A stretch of DNA of 38,375 nt from a virus (taxonomy: Duplodnaviria; Heunggongvirae; Uroviricota; Caudoviricetes), in IMG/VR virus record IMGVR_UViG_2541047847_000005; one strand, given 5' to 3'. This document shows, in pieces, positions 2,529 to 33,688 of the stretch. Each line of letters starts with the position of its first letter. Within the stretch, counting starts at the first letter, position 1. Below the pieces are notes generated by a model. The model was not told the origin of the DNA, made no database searches, and saw only the letters and a program-made list of their open reading frames with translations. The position numbers and the translations under genes are program-made.

Positions 2529-2927
2529 TTATCTGGATTTGTTAACGTCTTTCGTCTCCTCTGGCAGATCTTCATCAAACAACCTGCCCTGCATCCGATC
2601 CAGTTCTTCTTTTCTGACCCGCTTAACCACGCTGTAGACCCACTGAAGCGAAACACCAAACTTGCGGGCCAGTTCGTGGTGGTTGCGTCCGTTAAACTCC
2701 CTGAAGATTTCCCGGTCGCGCTGACTGACCTTCCATACCATGCCCATCGGGAAATAAACGTTTTGCCCGCCCCAGACCTGCATCATTCGGTTCGCGACGG
2801 CCTGACCAATCTGGTCGGCAATTGCGGGCTCAATATCAATAATCTCGCGAACGGTCTCAGAGGTATGCTGTGCCAGCTCCACCAGGAGTTCCGGCCCTTT
2901 ACTTCGAAACTGATTCAGGTCGCTCAT
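2529..2927 (-). CDS. mor: Mor/C-family transcriptional activator of middle/late genes
   Basis: 132 aa; C-terminal motif FNGRNHHELARKFGVSLQWVYSVVKR matches the Mor/C family helix-turn-helix; last gene of the early operon. Confidence 0.7.
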   Translation of the reverse strand: MSDLNQFRSKGPELLVELAQHTSETVREIIDIEPAIADQIGQAVANRMMQVWGGQNVYFPMGMVWKVSQRDREIFREFNGRNHHELARKFGVSLQWVYSVVKRVRKEELDRMQGRLFDEDLPEETKDVNKSR

Positions 2928-7556: not shown

Positions 7557-9326
7557 TCAGTTGCCGTTAACAATGCTGATAACACTGCTGCTGGCCGGTG
7601 TGGTCAGCGTGGCCATGACTTCATCCAGTGCGGCTTCCGGTACGCCGTCCGGGTACTGTGCCGTTAACTGGCGGTAATGTTCCGGCGTCCAGGTAAGGCC
7701 GTCGGCGCTGAACTTATCGCGCAGGGCTTTCGCGGCCTCCACATGAGTCATGGGACGTTGTTCAGTGCGCGGCCCGCGTACGTCAGAGGCCTGACCACGC
7801 TTCGGCATATAGGCCGGAAGTGTGGTGTCGTCGATATGTTTATACGGGTCAAGCCGCCCGCCGAACGGCAGCGCCTTCGCCTTGCGTGCGGCGGCTGCAT
7901 CTGCGGCGTTGTCTGTACCGGTAACCAGCGCTTCAGTTTCTTTTGCCGCCATCTGTGCCGGGGTTTCCGGCAGGGCTTTGTAACTTTCGCCAAATACCGC
8001 CGCGCCTTCAGCAAAGCCAAACTCGTTCTTTCTGACCTCTTCGACCAGGAAGAACGTCTCGTGGCCGTCCTCACCGGTCAGAACCACCTGTGCCACATCG
8101 CTGCGCCATGGGTTACGGGTAATCATCAGTTTTTCACCAACCAGTACGCCCGGTACCGTTGATACGTCAAATTCAGTGCCCCGGAACGAGACACGAAGTT
8201 TTGGCGTGACTTTGCGGAGTTCTGGTGCCGCCACAGCCAGTTCACGACATACCTCAACGGAAGGCGCTTTTTTCAGCTGCTCAGCAGTAATCTTCAGCCA
8301 GATATCCGTGCGGGTTTTACCGTGGCGGCTGTGAACAGCCGTGGCGTTAAAGTGGCTGCGCCATTTCGCGGCCAGCGCGTTGAGTTCTTCCAGACTGTGA
8401 ACCGGCCGGAACTTCAGACCCGGCTCCAGCTTGCGTTCGATAATGTCCCGCGCCTTTTCCACCTGTCCGGTGGCGCGGGCGTTATGCGGCTTGTGCGCTA
8501 TCAGGTCAATGCCCAGTGAGCGGCACATGTTTTTCGTCATACCCGCGGTGTTTGCCGAGCCGGGGTCGAGATAGAGTATTTTTGGCACGCCGTGCAGCAC
8601 GTCTGCGCCGCCACGCTCCTGCATGGCGTTGATAAGCACAGAACACAGGTTCTCACCGGATTCCGCACCCGTCACATACTCAACGTAAATCCAGCCGCTG
8701 GCATGGTCGGTAATCTCATAACTCCACACGCGGTCACTGGCGATACGGGCAAGGTTAGCGGGCTTGTTCTTGTAGAATTTCGCGCTGTCCATCACCTGCA
8801 GCCCTTTGTGTCCATTGCTCAGGTAGTAAAGCGTGCAGAGCGAGGCATCAATCTGCCAGACGTGATTGGGATGCAGACTGGCCACTTCGGTATGCGGCGC
8901 AGGGGCATCCAGTTGTTCCGGGTGCAGGCCATAGTTACGCAGGGCACGGCTGATGGCATCTTCGGACAACGGGAAAAACTCACCGGTGGTTTCATCTGTT
9001 CTGCCTGCGGAGATAAAGCCGTTAGCCCGCAGGGTTTCCACTGCATCTGCGATGGAATAGAGACGCTTACCGTTCTTGCGGGTGGCCTCACGCAGTGTGG
9101 CAGATATCAGCGCGGCTTCGTCGCGGGTCAGGGCGCTGCGCCCGGCATCGGCGCGTTTTTTGCGTTTATCAGTCACAGAGACCTCCTTCAGCCTGCGCAG
9201 CAGAGTGGCGCGGGACATGCCAAGTTCAGCACAGGCAGCGTCGTATATTGCACCGCGTTTACCATGCCCCGCGTCACGTGCCGCGCGGGCGACATAAACC
9301 AGTCGTTCAGTCAGGGCAGCATTCAT
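7557..9326 (-). CDS. DDE transposase (Mu A-like, integrase-core fold)
   Basis: 589 aa; N-terminal HTH region; candidate DDE residues in WQIDAS, LYLDPGSAN and GQVEKARDIIE; GGAGG upstream. Confidence 0.85.
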   Translation of the reverse strand: MNAALTERLVYVARAARDAGHGKRGAIYDAACAELGMSRATLLRRLKEVSVTDKRKKRADAGRSALTRDEAALISATLREATRKNGKRLYSIADAVETLRANGFISAGRTDETTGEFFPLSEDAISRALRNYGLHPEQLDAPAPHTEVASLHPNHVWQIDASLCTLYYLSNGHKGLQVMDSAKFYKNKPANLARIASDRVWSYEITDHASGWIYVEYVTGAESGENLCSVLINAMQERGGADVLHGVPKILYLDPGSANTAGMTKNMCRSLGIDLIAHKPHNARATGQVEKARDIIERKLEPGLKFRPVHSLEELNALAAKWRSHFNATAVHSRHGKTRTDIWLKITAEQLKKAPSVEVCRELAVAAPELRKVTPKLRVSFRGTEFDVSTVPGVLVGEKLMITRNPWRSDVAQVVLTGEDGHETFFLVEEVRKNEFGFAEGAAVFGESYKALPETPAQMAAKETEALVTGTDNAADAAAARKAKALPFGGRLDPYKHIDDTTLPAYMPKRGQASDVRGPRTEQRPMTHVEAAKALRDKFSADGLTWTPEHYRQLTAQYPDGVPEAALDEVMATLTTPASSSVISIVNGN

Positions 9327-10612: not shown

Positions 10613-10801
10613 TCAGGCTGCCTGAGCTGTTGATTTCAGCCCCAACTTCACGGCGATTTCATGGGATTTACCGTAACGGGCTTTGGTCTGCCCATTGAGA
10701 ACGCGGTATACCTCATTGCGGTTGTAGCCGTTTTCTTCTGCCCAGCGGGTGAAAGTGATCCCGCGCTGGCGGAAGAGAGCTTTGACTTGTTCTGCAGTCA
10801 T
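10613..10801 (-). CDS. ner: Ner-like DNA-binding protein (Ner/Nlp family), first gene of early operon
   Basis: 62 aa; pattern ALFRQRGITFTRWAEENGY...LNGQ...G..IA..LG resembles Mu Ner / E. coli Nlp; AGGAG 6 nt upstream of ATG at 10801. Confidence 0.7.
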   Translation of the reverse strand: MTAEQVKALFRQRGITFTRWAEENGYNRNEVYRVLNGQTKARYGKSHEIAVKLGLKSTAQAA

Positions 10802-10901
10802 CGTTGTCTCCTTTGTTGATGCAATGATGTTTGCCTTATGTGTGATAGATTATGGTGCAGATTACCTCACCAGTCAACTTAAAGAGTGCAGAAAAACTCA
10901 C
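10802..10901. promoter_or_regulatory. divergent promoter/operator region between ner-like and repressor genes
   Basis: 100-bp AT-rich gap between divergent regulator genes; contains three GTGCAGA / TGCAATGA-like repeats. Confidence 0.4.
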
Positions 10902-11240
10902 ATGATCGGGTTACGTATTAAAGAAGAAAGAGAGCGTCTATCTCTTACACAGCAAGGGTTGGCTGATGCTATAGGTGTGGCAAAGAGAACTTTCATTGAT
11001 TGGGAAAAAGATCGCACTTCTCCTACTGCAGTGCAGTTATCTGCACTATCAGAAATCGGTGTAGATATTTTGTATGTAGTTACTGGGGTGCGGAGTCAGC
11101 CTGTTGTTGCACCTTATGTGTCACAAGAAAAGAAAGAGTTAATGGATGCATTCGACGAAATGAGCCCCGAACAACGGAGGGCAATTCTTGAGGTCGGCAA
11201 AGTCTTCATTCAACCCAAACCAAGCAAACTCGCAGGCTGA
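10902..11240 (+). CDS. XRE-family HTH repressor (prophage immunity repressor)
   Basis: ORF 10749..11240, preferred start ATG at 10902; N-terminal LRIKEERERLSLTQQGLADAIGVAKRTFIDWEKDRTSP is a Cro/C1-type HTH; no LexA-like peptidase domain; low GC. Confidence 0.7.
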   Translation: MIGLRIKEERERLSLTQQGLADAIGVAKRTFIDWEKDRTSPTAVQLSALSEIGVDILYVVTGVRSQPVVAPYVSQEKKELMDAFDEMSPEQRRAILEVGKVFIQPKPSKLAG

Positions 11241-11326
11241 TTTTGACCTGGACACAAAGGACAGGTGGTTGATCTGGATGCTTTCAGAAAACATCGCCAG
11301 TGACATAGTGGAAGTTGTTTGGTTTA

Positions 11327-11357
11327 CCGGAAAGCATTGTGCTTTCCGGTTTTGTTT
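11327..11357 (+). terminator. rho-independent terminator downstream of repressor gene
   Basis: perfect 10-bp stem CCGGAAAGCA / TGCTTTCCGG with 3-nt loop followed by TTTTGTTT; abuts the stop codon of the convergent methyltransferase gene. Confidence 0.6.
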
Positions 11358-12121
11358 CAGAAGTTGCAGATTACCAGTTCACGGCGCGGCGTGGATTTCC
11401 CCGCCAGACTGTAGTTGATGTTCACTGTCTGTATGTTCAGTCCAGTGAACACCTCGCGCATCTGTGGGATATCGTTCACCGAAATTATCATTTTTCCTCT
11501 GATGCACCGGGCCAGCTCTGCCAGCCGCGAGTAGTTCCCTTCAGGAAAATCCACACCATAGCCTTCCGTACCCAGGTACGGTGGGTCGCAGTAGAACAGT
11601 GTGTGCGGACGATCATAACGCTCAATGCACTGTTGCCAGTCCATGTGTTCTATGACTGTTCTGGAAAGCCGCAGGTGTGCTGCTGACAGTTCTTCTTCAA
11701 TACGCAGCAGGTTGAAGCGTGGCGGGGATGTGGTGGAGGTACCGAAGCTGTGCTCTGCCACCTTGCCGCCAAACGCCTGCTTCTGAAGGTAGTAGAACCG
11801 TGCCGCACGCTGGATATCCGTCAGTGTTTCTTCCGGGGTGATCTGCAGCCATTTGTAGATCTGACGGCTGACCAGCGCCCATTTGAACTGGCGGACAAAT
11901 TCTTCCAGGTGATGCTTTACCACCCGGTACAGATTCACCAGTTCACCGTTGATATCATTGATGACTTCGATCTTGCCGGGTGTCTTAAGAAAATAGAGCG
12001 CTGCTGCCCCACAAAACGGCTCCACATAACATTCATGCGCCGGAAACAGCGGCAGGATGTGTTTTGCCAGGCGACGTTTGCCACCAATCCATGGAACGAT
12101 GGGTAATGTCTTCATTTTCAT
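11357..12121 (-). CDS. orphan Dam-class (D12) N6-adenine DNA methyltransferase
   Basis: 254 aa; motif I FCGAAALYF and motif IV DPPY; no adjacent restriction endonuclease gene. Confidence 0.85.
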   Translation of the reverse strand: MKMKTLPIVPWIGGKRRLAKHILPLFPAHECYVEPFCGAAALYFLKTPGKIEVINDINGELVNLYRVVKHHLEEFVRQFKWALVSRQIYKWLQITPEETLTDIQRAARFYYLQKQAFGGKVAEHSFGTSTTSPPRFNLLRIEEELSAAHLRLSRTVIEHMDWQQCIERYDRPHTLFYCDPPYLGTEGYGVDFPEGNYSRLAELARCIRGKMIISVNDIPQMREVFTGLNIQTVNINYSLAGKSTPRRELVICNF

Positions 12122-12312
12122 AATCTGTAAGCCTTTTACAATTATTAAAAATATGGCAGGCTAGTCTGGTCTCGCGAGACTGACTGAACCTCGGTCGGCT
12201 CACAGCCACTTCTGTGGGACGATGGCCAGCCCGGTGGGTCCGAAGCACCGGGCTGGTCGTTCTTTCATGATGCGGCAGGGATAGTGGGATTTCTGTTAAT
12301 GTGGTTTAGGGA

Positions 12313-12528
12313 TTATCCGGGGCGATTTTCTGACCTTATCCGGTCCAGGGCATAAGTAATACCTTCTGCAAAAACAGAAGTATCAAACTGCTTTTGTATT
12401 CCCTGAAAATGAAAAGCGGCACGACAGACACTCAGTTCTCCGCGATGTAACCGGATAATATCTTCCAGAACATTGTTCACTGCTTCAGCACGGCGCTGAT
12501 GTTCTGTTAACGTTAATCGGGGATTCAT
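12313..12528 (-). CDS. hypothetical small protein (71 aa)
   Basis: ATG at 12528 with AAGGAG 6 nt upstream; about 190 bp upstream of the methyltransferase gene. Confidence 0.5.
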   Translation of the reverse strand: MNPRLTLTEHQRRAEAVNNVLEDIIRLHRGELSVCRAAFHFQGIQKQFDTSVFAEGITYALDRIRSENRPG

Positions 12529-12529
12529 G

Positions 12530-12931
12530 ATGCACTCCTTAAATGATGATTTTTATGCACTCACCGGCAAAATATTCTGCCGATTACTGAACACGCATCC
12601 GGCACCTCAGGTTTTGATTTATTCTGGTTTTTTCGATATCCCGGACCAGGTTGATCACGACCAGAAAAAGTGCCGGTATTTTATTGATACGCTGATATGG
12701 CTTCGGGATAACAGCTATATTCGTTACTCTCAGTTGCTGGCTGTGGGAGCGGCTGATGTCGTCCTCACGGAAAAAACGCTCCGTCTGCTCAATGCCACGC
12801 CGACCCTTCTGCAGCCCCGGCCCGCACCATTTAAAGAGTCACTTCTGGATGCAGTAAAAACCGGTGAAAATGCAGTCATCGCTGAATGCGTATCCCGGAT
12901 TATGCGTTACGTGTTTAATGAACGTAAGTGA
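12530..12931 (+). CDS. hypothetical protein (about 133 aa)
   Basis: ORF 12527..12931; about 400 bp open on plus strand with no competing ORF; ATG at 12530 has GGGGA 6 nt upstream; start overlaps the start of the divergent 71-aa gene. Confidence 0.4.
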   Translation: MHSLNDDFYALTGKIFCRLLNTHPAPQVLIYSGFFDIPDQVDHDQKKCRYFIDTLIWLRDNSYIRYSQLLAVGAADVVLTEKTLRLLNATPTLLQPRPAPFKESLLDAVKTGENAVIAECVSRIMRYVFNERK

Positions 12932-13650: not shown

Positions 13651-13780
13651 ATCGTATTCTCCTCTGTGAATAATTCATCGTTTATCCTGCACATCCCGTA
13701 TCCCCGGCTCTCTTAACGCGCTTTAAAATCCTTCGCGCCCTGTATTTGTGATGCTGTCTCCACCAGACAAGGAGACACAC

Positions 13781-27000: not shown

Positions 27001-27097
27001 CATCACAGGGGCTCCGGCCCCTTCTTCTTAATCTCCTTTAATATCCGTCACGCGCTTCTCCCGACATACTGCCCTGAACTTACACAGGAGCACAATC

Positions 27098-27590: not shown

Positions 27591-30500
27591 ATGTCGGGAC
27601 AGTTTTCAGTCGGCGTTGTTATCGGCGGGATGATTGGCAGCACATTCCGTTCTGCAATGAGCGGTACCCGCCGTGCGCTTGATTCCCTGAGCGATACCTC
27701 ACGCCGCCTGCAGGAACGTCAGAACGCTTTAACCCGTGCAACAGAACGTTATGGTCAACTGGGTTCTTCCCGGATGCAGCATCTCAACAGCGAGCTGCTG
27801 CGGGTAAGCCGCACCATGGAGCAAATTGAGCGCCAGCAGCGCCGTCTGTCAGCGGCATCCGCTACCAGTGATGCGCTGAAAGCTAACCGCATGGCGCTGT
27901 ATGGTCAGGGGATTGAAGCGTATGGCATGGCTCAGACTGTTTATCATACGGTTTCCCCTGCCGTTCAGCAGTCCATGTTTTTTCAGGACAAAATGATTGA
28001 TATGTCGATCACCGCAAAATATGACAATAAAACGCGGGATGCACTTGCCGGACAGATAAAAGGCTGGGCGCTTAAATACAATCAGTATCAGGATGAGCTG
28101 CAGGAGGCGGTGGGTTCACTCATCAGCGACAATATTGATAATGTGTCAGATATCGGTTTTCTGATGCCGGATATTGCCCGCGCGGCAACGGCAACACGCA
28201 CGTCTGCTCAGGACTGGGCAAAAGTGGCCGCAGTCTGGCAAAACTCCCTGAAAGGTGCGGCCAGAGATTTTGGTGCCGTTCAGAATATTATGGCTTATGC
28301 CGGTGACCAGGGGTCATTTGAAATCCCGGATCAGGTCAAGTGGATGCAGTCCCTGGCCCCAATGATGGCGGGTATTGCCAGTGGAAAAGAGGCTGTTGCT
28401 GAAATCGGGGCCAGTCTCCAGATAGCAAAAATCGGTGCAGGTTCCACCGACGAAGCAGCCAATAATTTTAAAAACTTTCTTACCAAAATTTTTGCCCGCG
28501 ATACTCAGAAACAGTTTGCTGATCTGGGTATTGATTTGCAGGGATCTATTGCGAGTTATAAAGCTGCGGGGATCTCTCCGATTGAAGGGATGTTGAGTGT
28601 TATAGAACGTTACCTCAATGCCAAAAGCCCCGAAGCGCTGGCCGGCTTCAAATCCGCCATGAAAATAAAGAATGATACGGCAAGAGATGAGGCACTTCAG
28701 GCTCTGGCGAAAAACTTTGGTCTGGGTGATATGTTCGCGGATATGCAGGTCATGGCATTTATCCGCCCGATGCTGGCCAACATGGACAGATATCGCGAGA
28801 TCCGCGCCGGTGCTCTCAGGGCTGCGGATAACGATTTGCTTGCCAGTGCTTATGATCAGCGGCTGAAATCTCCCCTTGAAGCCACTAAAACACTTATGGT
28901 CAGCAGTCGCGATCTGGCAATTACGCTGGGCGATCAATTAGCTCCATCTTTTATTTCTTTGACTCAGGAACTGCTTCCACTCATTCAGGGGGCAAAACAC
29001 TGGGTAGCGACTCACCCGCAATTTGTCAGTGGGGCTTTTAAGCTCATCAGTGCGCTCCTTGCGATTAAGATAGCGACTGTTGGTCTCAAACTGGGGCTGA
29101 ATCTCCTTATTTCCCCCTTTGTGAACGTCTGGAAAACTACTGTTTTACTCCGGACCAACTGGCATCGACTGGCTACCGCACTCGGAGAAGGTGGCAAATT
29201 ACGCTGGCTTGTCACTGGATTCAGCCGACTGACCAGCGGAGGACTGAAACTCAGCAAAGTTCTGGCGGGCAGCCTCGTTCGCGGTTTTATGAGCGCTGCA
29301 CGTGCCGTTCTCTGGATTGGGCGAGCGCTGATGATGAATCCCATCGGTCTCGTTATCACCGCTGTCGCGGCAGCAGCTTACCTTATCTACCGCAACTGGG
29401 GGGCTGTCAGTGGTTGGTTTAAACAGCGCTGGGCTGACATTCAGGAAGCCTTTAACGGCGGCATTGTGGGAATTGGTAAGTTGCTGATTAACTGGTCGCC
29501 GGCAGGCCTGCTCTATAAAGCCTTTGCGGCTGCGCTGAAATATTTCGGCGTTGCTCTGCCGGCAAAGTTCACCGACTTCGGTGGCCATCTTATCGACGGT
29601 CTGATTAACGGTATCAAAAACAAATGGGGGTCGCTCAAATCCAGTGTAACCGGAATGGGTGACAGCATCAGTAGCTGGTTTAAACAGTGCTGGGCTGACA
29701 TTCAGGAAGCCTTTAACGGCGGCATTGTGGGAATTGGTAAGTTGCTGATTAACTGGTCGCCGGCAGGCCTGCTCTATAAAGCCTTTGCGGCTGCGCTGAA
29801 ATATTTCGGCGTTACTCTGCCGGCAAAGTTCACCGACTTCGGTGGCCATCTTATCGACGGTCTGATTAACGGTATCAAAAACAAATGGGGGGCGCTCAAA
29901 TCCAGTGTAACCGGAATGGGTGACAGCATCAGTAGCTGGTTTAAACAGTGCTGGGCTGACATTCAGGAAGCCTTTAACGGCGGTATCGCGGGAACTGGTA
30001 AGCTGCTGATTAACTGGTCGCCGGCAGGTCTGCTCTATAAAGCCTTTGCAGCTGCGCTGAAATATCTTGGTGTTGATCTGCCGGCAAAGTTTACCGACTT
30101 CGGTGGCCATCTTGTCGATGGTCTGATTAACGGTATCAAAAACAAATGGGAGTCGCTCAAATCCAGTGTAACCGGAATGGGTGACAGCATCAGTGGCTGG
30201 TTCAGCGAAAAGCTGGGCATTCATTCGCCGAGCCGCGTGTTTATGGGCTTTGGTGACAATATCGCGCAGGGGGCCGCCATTGGCCTGCAGCGGACCACTC
30301 CGCTTGTAGCTCTGGCCGGGCAGCGAATGGCCAGTGAACTGCTCCCCAGAATGCCCGTGAGCATTCAGGGGCCAGAAATACGGGATAACACTTCAGGTGT
30401 TCGCTTCAGTATGCCGTTGCCCGATATCAATGGGTTTATGTCGTCTGCTAAAAATGCGATCGGAGCCGTAATCAATAGTTTGTCTTCCATGCCCGCTATT

Positions 30501-30803
30501 CCGCTCTCCACCCGGGCATCGATTTTACCAGGGCAACGTCTGGCAAATGAGATGACACCGGATGTTCCCCGTATCCCCTCGCCTGAAATCCTGGCTGCCG
30601 GATATTCAGGCCGTGGTGCAGCTGCAACCGGCGGTGGAACGTCTGGTGGTATCCAGGTCAGCTTTAATCCTCAGTTTTTCCTCAATGGCAGGGAAACCAC
30701 AGCGCCTGCAGGACTGACTGGTGCCCTGAATATGAGTCTGCATGAGCTGGAAAAAATGCTGGAGCGTCTGCTGGCTCAGAAACAACGTAAGGAGTACCGC
30801 TGA
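27591..30803 (+). CDS. tail tape measure protein with internal tandem triplication
   Basis: 1070 aa; GGAGG upstream; long helical protein after the chaperone genes; contains 3 near-identical 87-aa repeats. Confidence 0.9.
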   Translation: MSGQFSVGVVIGGMIGSTFRSAMSGTRRALDSLSDTSRRLQERQNALTRATERYGQLGSSRMQHLNSELLRVSRTMEQIERQQRRLSAASATSDALKANRMALYGQGIEAYGMAQTVYHTVSPAVQQSMFFQDKMIDMSITAKYDNKTRDALAGQIKGWALKYNQYQDELQEAVGSLISDNIDNVSDIGFLMPDIARAATATRTSAQDWAKVAAVWQNSLKGAARDFGAVQNIMAYAGDQGSFEIPDQVKWMQSLAPMMAGIASGKEAVAEIGASLQIAKIGAGSTDEAANNFKNFLTKIFARDTQKQFADLGIDLQGSIASYKAAGISPIEGMLSVIERYLNAKSPEALAGFKSAMKIKNDTARDEALQALAKNFGLGDMFADMQVMAFIRPMLANMDRYREIRAGALRAADNDLLASAYDQRLKSPLEATKTLMVSSRDLAITLGDQLAPSFISLTQELLPLIQGAKHWVATHPQFVSGAFKLISALLAIKIATVGLKLGLNLLISPFVNVWKTTVLLRTNWHRLATALGEGGKLRWLVTGFSRLTSGGLKLSKVLAGSLVRGFMSAARAVLWIGRALMMNPIGLVITAVAAAAYLIYRNWGAVSGWFKQRWADIQEAFNGGIVGIGKLLINWSPAGLLYKAFAAALKYFGVALPAKFTDFGGHLIDGLINGIKNKWGSLKSSVTGMGDSISSWFKQCWADIQEAFNGGIVGIGKLLINWSPAGLLYKAFAAALKYFGVTLPAKFTDFGGHLIDGLINGIKNKWGALKSSVTGMGDSISSWFKQCWADIQEAFNGGIAGTGKLLINWSPAGLLYKAFAAALKYLGVDLPAKFTDFGGHLVDGLINGIKNKWESLKSSVTGMGDSISGWFSEKLGIHSPSRVFMGFGDNIAQGAAIGLQRTTPLVALAGQRMASELLPRMPVSIQGPEIRDNTSGVRFSMPLPDINGFMSSAKNAIGAVINSLSSMPAIPLSTRASILPGQRLANEMTPDVPRIPSPEILAAGYSGRGAAATGGGTSGGIQVSFNPQFFLNGRETTAPAGLTGALNMSLHELEKMLERLLAQKQRKEYR
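29415..30197 (+). repeat. 3 tandem copies of a 261-bp in-frame repeat inside the tape measure gene
   Basis: repeat units start at 29415, 29676 and 29937 (TGGTTTAAACAG...); each encodes WFKQ.WADIQEAFNGGI...KNKW..LKSSVTGMGDSIS with few substitutions. Confidence 0.9.
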
Positions 30804-33634: not shown

Positions 33635-33688
33635 GCTTTTTAAACGCCTTTAATATCAGCGTTCCCGCACGGGGGCAATACTGCCCCC

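Follow-up and report, generated by a model that had tools for sequence, protein, structure and literature searches.

Control of the com-mom operon of phage Mu is the textbook case of a phage silencing a harmful DNA-modification gene. Its late promoter is activated by the C protein, and Com relieves a stem in the mRNA that inhibits translation (summarized in PMC3299994). Modification enzymes of this kind, such as Mom (PMC3299994) and Dam relatives with relaxed specificity, are reported to harm the host. Mu-like prophages carry com and a Dam-related methylase instead of mom, B3 having com and ORF48, and the Dam-related methylases Hia5, Hin1523, and Nma1821 of such prophages methylate nearly any adenine (PMC3299994). 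Here, we analyzed an orphan adenine methylase gene of this family, below called dam, and the RNA leader that precedes it in a DNA stretch of 38,375 nucleotides (IMG/VR record IMGVR_UViG_2541047847_000005; hereafter, the window), which consists almost entirely of a BcepMu-like (Bcepmuvirus) transposable prophage of Escherichia coli inserted beside codB. In the initial annotation, a palindrome and a hairpin upstream of dam were treated as two independent signals of a spacer. This view did not hold, since both are stems of one conserved transcribed leader of about 150 nt. The leader probably hides the ribosome-binding site of dam and thereby gates the translation of a late DNA-modification gene.

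The leader occupies positions 12117..12269 on the minus strand, which is the strand of dam and of all the leader parts described below. It was the sole match of the covariance model in the window (126 bits, E=5e-24), with a fold z-score of -4.6. In the direction of dam, it starts with a conserved purine-rich tract (GAAAGA and similar; 12261..12266), followed by the 5' strand of the covarying helix P1 (GAAC, 12259..12262) and by the hairpin P2 (12226..12256). The latter is the previously noted hairpin CCAGCCCGGTG / CACCGGGCTGG, with an 11-bp stem and a 9-nt loop, whose coordinates were exact. Next come the junction CAUCAAC, the hairpin P3 (CACAG-N6-CUGUG in the window and CACAG-N7-CUGUG in the general scheme, CACAG pairing with CUGUG; 12201..12216), and GAGCCNACCAAG. 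They are followed by the 3' strand of P1 (GUUC, 12186..12189) and by the hairpin P4 (12163..12185), the top of which covaries. The tip of P4 is the perfect 12-bp palindrome GTCTCGCGAGAC, correctly located before at 12169..12180. The leader is completed by AGCCUA, a U-rich linker, AAAGGCUUACAG, and the AUG codon, and the ribosome-binding region AAAAGGCUUACAG (12125..12137) includes the Shine-Dalgarno (SD) sequence AAGG at 12132..12135. The 3' arm of P3 plus GAGCC makes up an anti-SD segment, CUGUGAGCC (12197..12205), complementary to GGCUUACAG, located just 5' of the start codon (12125..12133). P1 uses nucleotides from the base of P4 for its 3' strand, so that only one of these two pairings can form at a time; P3 and the anti-SD:SD helix are mutually exclusive as well. 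This double exclusivity gives the leader the layout of a translational switch.

For comparative analysis, loci were gathered in three ways. A 20-mer from around the palindrome retrieved 54 viral contigs, the Dam protein as a query gave 80 loci from viruses and 80 from genomes, and the P3 pattern by itself gave 115 loci, of which 83 were new. The approximately 145 bp from the hairpin to the start codon were more conserved than the dam coding sequence. In the Klebsiella phage KP12 and in Phi06_2974B, DNA similarity to the window spanned dam and about 145 bp upstream and ended abruptly at TGAAAGAACGACC, and the genes upstream of the leader differed from those of the window. An nhmmer profile of the block detected it in 188 of 219 loci, and a covariance model built from 35 diverse copies recovered diverged copies in most loci missed by nhmmer. 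When run on 100 loci, this model gave one match in each of them, on the dam strand every time.

The helices are supported by covariation. The modelled partners could pair in 88.9% of the alignment cells, compared to 68.5% after shuffling (none of 500 shuffles reached the observed value) and 25%–45% with slid partners. Changes on both sides were found in 22 of the 25 modelled pairs, and the covariation score was 0.52 versus at most 0.09 with slid partners. The long-range helix P1 was recovered by RNAalifold unaided, and its variants included GAAC:GUUC, AGAGC:GCUCU, CAGGGC:GCCCUG, GACAGC:GCUGUC, GGAAGC:GCUUCC, and CGGUGC:GCACCG. All 11 modelled pairs of P2 were changed on both sides, and 90% of its cells pair; CCAGCCCGGTG/CACCGGGCTGG of the window is replaced by CCAGCCCGGC/GCCGGGCTGG in phage PhiKM and by CGGTCCGG/CCGGACCG in locus L010. 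For P3, 96.8% of cells pair, with variants such as CGCAG:CUGCG, CACUG:CAGUG, and CACGGUG:CACCGUG. At the tip of P4, a perfect palindrome of at least 8 nt was present in 60 of 81 unique sequences. Only its pairing is kept, not its sequence, since 29 different palindromes were found at the homologous position, and their self-complementary tetraloops include UCGA, CGCG, GGCC, and ACGU.

A small open reading frame (ORF) within the leader (MKERPARC...) was rejected as a candidate gene. Copies of the leader differ by indels of 1–2 nt, which are not multiples of three, and the first codon, ATG, TTG, GTG, or CTG in different copies, is not conserved; the block is therefore non-coding. In PhiKM (L002, PQ738613; 5769-6623), dam is annotated as a gene of 285 amino acids, in which 30 additional N-terminal residues read through the leader. 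This reading is possible because of one extra T in a T-run, and the longer gene call is probably an annotation artefact.

The leader precedes DNA-modification genes in hundreds of related phages. It holds a fixed position before the first cistron and was found ahead of genes for Dam relatives that share as little as about 51% identity. In 68 of the 83 new loci found with the P3 pattern, a Dam homologue starts 77–118 nt downstream. With this Dam subfamily, it is present in Enterobacterales, Photorhabdus, Chromobacterium, Burkholderia, and others, and it occurs in both Mu-like and lambda-like phages of Gamma- and Betaproteobacteria. Several copies have an unusual composition. Loci L042 and L058 retain an intact leader followed by a dam gene cut to a 27-codon remnant, while in L250, L254, and L273 no more than the 5' half of the leader is left, beside unrelated genes. 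L069 contains a second partial leader (the P1-P2 part, 1837-1896) about 1 kb upstream of the complete copy. In Pseudomonas phage Bise (L220, 836-2592), genes for a four-helix-bundle protein and a reverse transcriptase, a pair resembling a diversity-generating retroelement, are located directly upstream of the leader, which is followed by a probable com and dam.

The pairing between the anti-SD segment and the region before the start codon was also conserved. Across loci, the complementarity involves the 6–9 nt just ahead of the start codon of the downstream gene. In this helix, 85.6% of cells pair, compared to at most 41% with slid partners, and six of the nine pairs were changed on both sides. 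Its co-variants include CUGCAAGUC:GGCUUGCAG, CUGCGAGCC:GGUUUGCAG, CCGUGAGCC:GGCUCACG, and CUGCAAACC:GGUUUGUAG, as well as GUGAA:UUCAC in the Burkholderia clade. The helix contains 157 G·U cells on the sense strand, which would be A·C if read on the other strand; because it needs these G·U pairs, the active strand is the sense (dam) strand. Outside Enterobacterales, a gene in the same orientation ends with its stop codon from a few to about 40 nt ahead of the leader, and in phi1026b it occupies the 142 nt between Rz and dam. Since it directly follows genes of the same orientation and fills the gap between Rz and dam, the leader is a part of the sense (late) mRNA.

The complementarity was kept regardless of which gene follows the leader. 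Usually it is dam, but elsewhere it is com, an N6_N4 methylase gene (locus L297), or com-mom (locus L301). In at least 15 related loci, com is located downstream of the leader, and the order leader-com-dam is seen among them. In L297 (817-928), the junction part of the leader precedes a gene for an N6_N4 methylase (PF01555) unrelated to Dam, and UGUGAG is complementary to CUCACA before the AUG codon. In L301, an IMG/VR contig, the leader (1158-1307) is followed by one frame with the Com zinc ribbon (PF10122) and the Mom domain (PF25680); this ORF is a fused or overlapping com-mom.

Upstream of the leader, at 12293..12308 on the minus strand, lies the late-promoter-like dyad TAAACCACATTAACAG, a variant of TTAA-N6-TTAA, followed after 28 nt by the -10-like CATCAT (12267..12272, minus strand). 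The arrangement of TTAA-N6-TTAA, 28 nt, and nATnCT or nATnAT precedes three late operons of the window. These sister dyads, all on the plus strand, stand before the holin/lysis operon (13713..13726) and before two tail/baseplate units (27028..27041 and 33640..33653). In Phi06_2974B (L004) and L143, a single dyad is located between the divergent dam and lysis operons. The dyad looks like a putative binding site for a Mor-family late activator, and the candidate factor is encoded at 2529..2927 on the minus strand (PHROG 532 'late transcriptional activator', E=2e-45; RefSeq 'Mor transcription activator family protein'). Since the dyad is common to the late operons and a gene for a Mor-family activator is present, dam is probably the fourth late unit of the prophage, similar to mom. 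The predicted transcription start coincides, to within a few bases, with the position at the 5' side where conservation sets in sharply.

According to the proposed mechanism, transcription would begin at or near the 5' edge of the leader, from a promoter presumably dependent on the Mor-family activator. The resulting 5' leader of dam, about 150 nt long, would fold into a three-way junction, in which P1 closes P2 and P3, with the long hairpin P4 next to it. The 3' arm of P3 and the next four bases could swap their partner for the 9 nt before the start codon. In the ground state, the ribosome-binding region would be paired, and translation of the methylase would be low by default; release would occur only when P3 or the entire junction is stabilized or kinetically trapped. 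Thus gated twice, dam would act as a late gene and take the part of com-mom in Mu, with the progeny DNA being modified against host restriction. Folding calculations are consistent with this scheme. The minimum-energy fold of the window sequence pairs the anti-SD with the SD region, and the probability of being unpaired in the full leader is 0.02 for GGCUUACAG. For the SD sequence AAGG, it is 0.36 in the full leader and rises to 0.99 when the leader is truncated on the 3' side of the anti-SD. Relative to the minimum-energy fold, the state with P3 formed lies at +2.6 kcal/mol and the state with both P1 and P3 formed at +9.8 kcal/mol.

As to what could operate the switch, two inputs appear equally possible, each short of an even chance. 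One is a gate of a kinetic or constitutive type, in which the conserved, SD-like purine tract at the 5' end may serve as a standby site; the other is a phage or host RNA-binding protein. A small molecule is a much weaker candidate, and a trans or antisense RNA would be the least expected input. Autoregulation by Dam and an S-adenosylmethionine (SAM) riboswitch are unlikely, given the copies of the leader before the N6_N4 methylase gene and com-mom. We also consider, as a rather doubtful extension, that the junction could be a sensor of the late or lytic state, either a new riboswitch class or the target of an RNA-binding factor, licensing translation of any modification enzyme (Dam, N6_N4, or Com-Mom), with the self-complementary P4 loop serving for RNA-RNA dimerization.

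Several points weigh against sequestration of the SD sequence as the function of the leader. Computation bears out the leader itself, its helices and their covariation, its strand, and its constant place ahead of the first cistron, but the site where transcription starts, the late promoter, and the effect on translation are predicted. In addition, the pair counts come from an alignment fitted to the model, which favors the structure. Fold z-scores are similar on both strands (-4.6 for the dam strand and -4.9 for the other), and the mismatches in P2 and P4 favor neither strand if one conserved A·C position is disregarded. Two further proposed pairings, of AGGCU with AGCCU at the base of P4 and of AGCCU with the SD, can form in about 85% of cells but show no covariation. 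The exact switching scheme is therefore tentative, and both main folds may leave the SD partly paired. The dyad of the window is 7 nt nearer to the leader than in the KP12 type; therefore, a start at fixed spacing could fall within the 5' strand of P1. Finally, the near-universal perfect palindrome at the tip of P4 is not accounted for by an RNA hairpin alone.

Other explanations of the same region were weighed. The leader could act in the sense RNA without hiding the ribosome-binding site, as a processing or stability element (e.g., a target of RNase III or RNase E in the long P2/P4 stems) or as a transcription attenuator within late operons. This would agree with the long, almost perfect stems P2 and P4, with the intercistronic position of the leader in phi1026b, and with CUUUCC or UUUUCC after P2 on the sense strand in the Burkholderia clade. 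However, most clades have no U-tract after P2 on this strand. In the window, P2 is followed by CCAUCGUCCC and, as noted in the initial annotation, is not a classical terminator; on the plus strand, a terminator scan at the hairpin flagged only a sub-stem with GGTCGTTCTT. Moreover, the stretch just ahead of the start codon and the 3' arm of P3 covary in front of four different kinds of genes, which would not be expected if the element only stabilized the mRNA or attenuated its transcription; we consider this explanation unlikely. A small RNA of the plus strand, running from near the dam start to the hairpin and then UCGUUCUUUCA, could be an antisense regulator of the dam leader. A sigma-70-like sequence, TTTTCA-16-TACAAT, is present at 12115..12142 (plus strand), the invariant purine tract before P1 would form a U-rich tail on this strand, several C·A mismatches in P2 of the E. 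coli-type copies would become G·U, and P3 gains three G·U pairs on the plus strand only. On the other hand, the putative promoter differs from clade to clade, with TGCAAT or TACTGT in some and none in others, and the tail in many clades is CCUCCUCU-like, with no U-run. The plus-strand preference seen in the G·U versus A·C mismatches of P2 and P4 was rejected as evidence because it disappeared when this A·C, located close to the P2 base, was left out of the count (57 A·C versus 41 G·U in P2 and 41 versus 38 in P4). The 157 G·U cells of the anti-SD:SD helix would turn into A·C, and the element sits inside late operons. All this makes an antisense RNA improbable.

The palindrome had been proposed to be an operator for a dimeric phage regulator, which would leave the hairpin unrelated. 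The frequency of perfect DNA palindromes at the tip of P4 is indeed far above what an RNA tetraloop needs, and with the palindrome about 95 bp downstream of the predicted start, a roadblock is conceivable. Nevertheless, the 29 palindromes are found amid near-identical flanks, and no second copy was detected in the window at up to two mismatches. In loci L071-L073, the P4 stem persists through G·U pairs alone, and the palindrome is enclosed by helices that covary over a long range as RNA. The operator proposal was not upheld, and we regard it as highly improbable. There is next to no likelihood that the palindrome and the hairpin are incidental features of a spacer. Perfect 12-nt palindromes were as frequent in the window as in dinucleotide shuffles (8 versus 10.4 +/- 3.3), which would agree with chance, and perfect stems of at least 11 bp were unusual (three loci versus 0.1 expected). 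The significance of both features rests on the comparison of genomes rather than on such statistics, and chance is already refuted by how the element is conserved, how it covaries, and how it keeps its position across more than 180 loci.

The gene downstream of the leader, dam (11357..12121, minus strand; start codon 12119..12121), encodes an orphan D12-class N6-adenine DNA methyltransferase of 254 amino acids. Its assignment to the Dam class, made earlier from the motifs FCGAAALYF and DPPY, was confirmed by matches in several libraries: Pfam PF02086 MethyltransfD12 (E=5.9e-29, residues 11-234 on profile positions 1-248 of 253), PHROG 56 (E=6e-101), and PADLOC MTase_II (E=6e-113). The SAM-binding motif I, EPFCGAAALYF, lies near residue 35, N-terminal to motif IV, CDPPYLG, near residue 178. 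The protein is 61.6%–65.9% identical to the methylases of phi1026b, vB_E175, and Pseudomonas phage Bise (65.5% to phi1026b gp26 and 61.6% to the Bise enzyme), and its relatives in PDB, including DpnM and EcoDam, share about 25% identity. At the positions of the GATC-contacting residues K9 and R124 of EcoDam, the window enzyme has P and A/E in a weak pairwise alignment to 2g1p at 25% identity. The sequence hints at a specificity that is relaxed or other than GATC.

As also stated in the initial annotation, dam has no partner endonuclease: no restriction endonuclease or nuclease family was found in the adjoining ORFs with Pfam and PADLOC. These ORFs belong to PHROGs 4490, 2266, and 3787, families with unassigned function. 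Since no nuclease is among the neighbors and the neighbors vary between related phages (e.g., KP12), dam is an orphan gene. Strain EC958 carries the same prophage (at 1.00-1.04 Mb) with the same leader, and its Dam matches the window enzyme at 251 of 254 residues. For a D12-class orphan methylase of an EC958 prophage, M.EcoMIV, both the transcript and the methylation motif were undetected in the lysogen (PMC4659465). M.EcoMIV is probably this gene; if so, its silence in the lysogen fits expression only at the late stage. An anti-restriction role of dam is plausible. In Mu-like prophages, the place of mom is reported to be taken by Dam-related methylases (PMC3299994), and another phage has a true com-mom operon behind the same leader.

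The region 10600..13700 matches strain K56-43-un at 100% identity and phage PhiKM at 96%, and the dam region was found in 636 of 5,426 complete E. coli genomes. The early operon is directed leftward and includes genes for Gam, the transposase (7557..9326), and the Mor-family activator; a perfect 11-bp-stem hairpin just 3' of the activator gene (2456-2486) is presumably a terminator. A repressor-like helix-turn-helix gene (10749..11240) is directed rightward, and a hairpin with a T-tract at 11326..11350 (plus strand) forms a terminator between it and the convergent dam. Genes for lysis, head, and tail proteins are directed rightward from about 13.7 kb. Upstream of dam, the divergent ORFs 12313-12528 (minus strand) and 12527-12931 (plus strand) share 2 nt where their start codons meet head-to-head, and both strongly match PHROGs (4490 and 2266); their promoters would need to sit within each other's coding sequence. 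In the prophage (1401-38375), GATC is scarce, with 105 sites versus 177 expected under a Markov model. The tape-measure gene is an intact ORF of 1,070 codons in the window (27591-30803), whereas in K56-43-un (L001, 36992-40204) it is represented by two annotated pseudogene pieces; the window may therefore stem from a strain other than that suggested by the full identity of the dam region.

If the proposed mechanism is correct, the leader would be a second, RNA-based way to silence a harmful modification gene, far more widespread than that of Mu, and would explain the absence of M.EcoMIV-like prophage methylases from the methylomes of lysogens. It would also represent a compact, testable RNA switch. 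For annotators, it would be a warning that the dam 'spacer' has a function and that N-terminally extended dam gene calls, as in PhiKM, are probably artefacts.

Among RNA-based regulators, the leader resembles riboswitches and protein-responsive leaders in that a short P1 closes the junction and a downstream helix also draws on the 3' strand of P1, and in having conserved junction nucleotides, variable stems, and an anti-SD segment. Like riboswitches, it accompanies non-homologous genes of one function (D12-class Dam, N6_N4 methylase, and Com-Mom); that is, a conserved, covarying, aptamer-like fold is located upstream of functionally related genes that are not homologous. Unlike riboswitches, it has no match in Rfam: among the 4,227 families of Rfam 15, none matched at the gathering score in the whole window, and nothing relevant was found at E<=10 in 12080..12340; the copy linked to Mom also speaks against a SAM sensor. 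A candidate cis-regulatory RNA called the D12-methyl motif was reportedly found upstream of adenine methylase genes by Weinberg and colleagues in 2017. The Rfam scan gave no match to this motif in the window. A survey of IMG/VR revealed four unnamed candidate RNAs upstream of N6-adenine methyltransferase genes, with no function described (PMC10690425). The leader apparently represents an undescribed structural family of its own, unless it corresponds to one of these four candidates.

Comparison with Mu-like phages shows both common and distinct features. Similar to Hia5, Hin1523, Nma1821, and B3 ORF48, the methylase of the window is an orphan Dam-family enzyme with DPPY encoded in a Mu-like prophage, but unlike their genes, dam adjoins a repressor-like gene and is not accompanied by com. 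In contrast to Mu, no ORF for a Com-like zinc ribbon (CxxC...CxxC) was found in any frame of the window. The leader is a multi-helix structure of about 150 nt located upstream of com where com occurs, whereas the covariance model found no match in the right end of Mu, nor in that of B3. At the same time, as in Mu, the window represents a transposable phage with a gene for a Mor/C-family activator, and a probably late adenine-modification gene has its ribosome-binding region in a predicted RNA helix, as in com-mom. In L301, this leader precedes a genuine com-mom pair.

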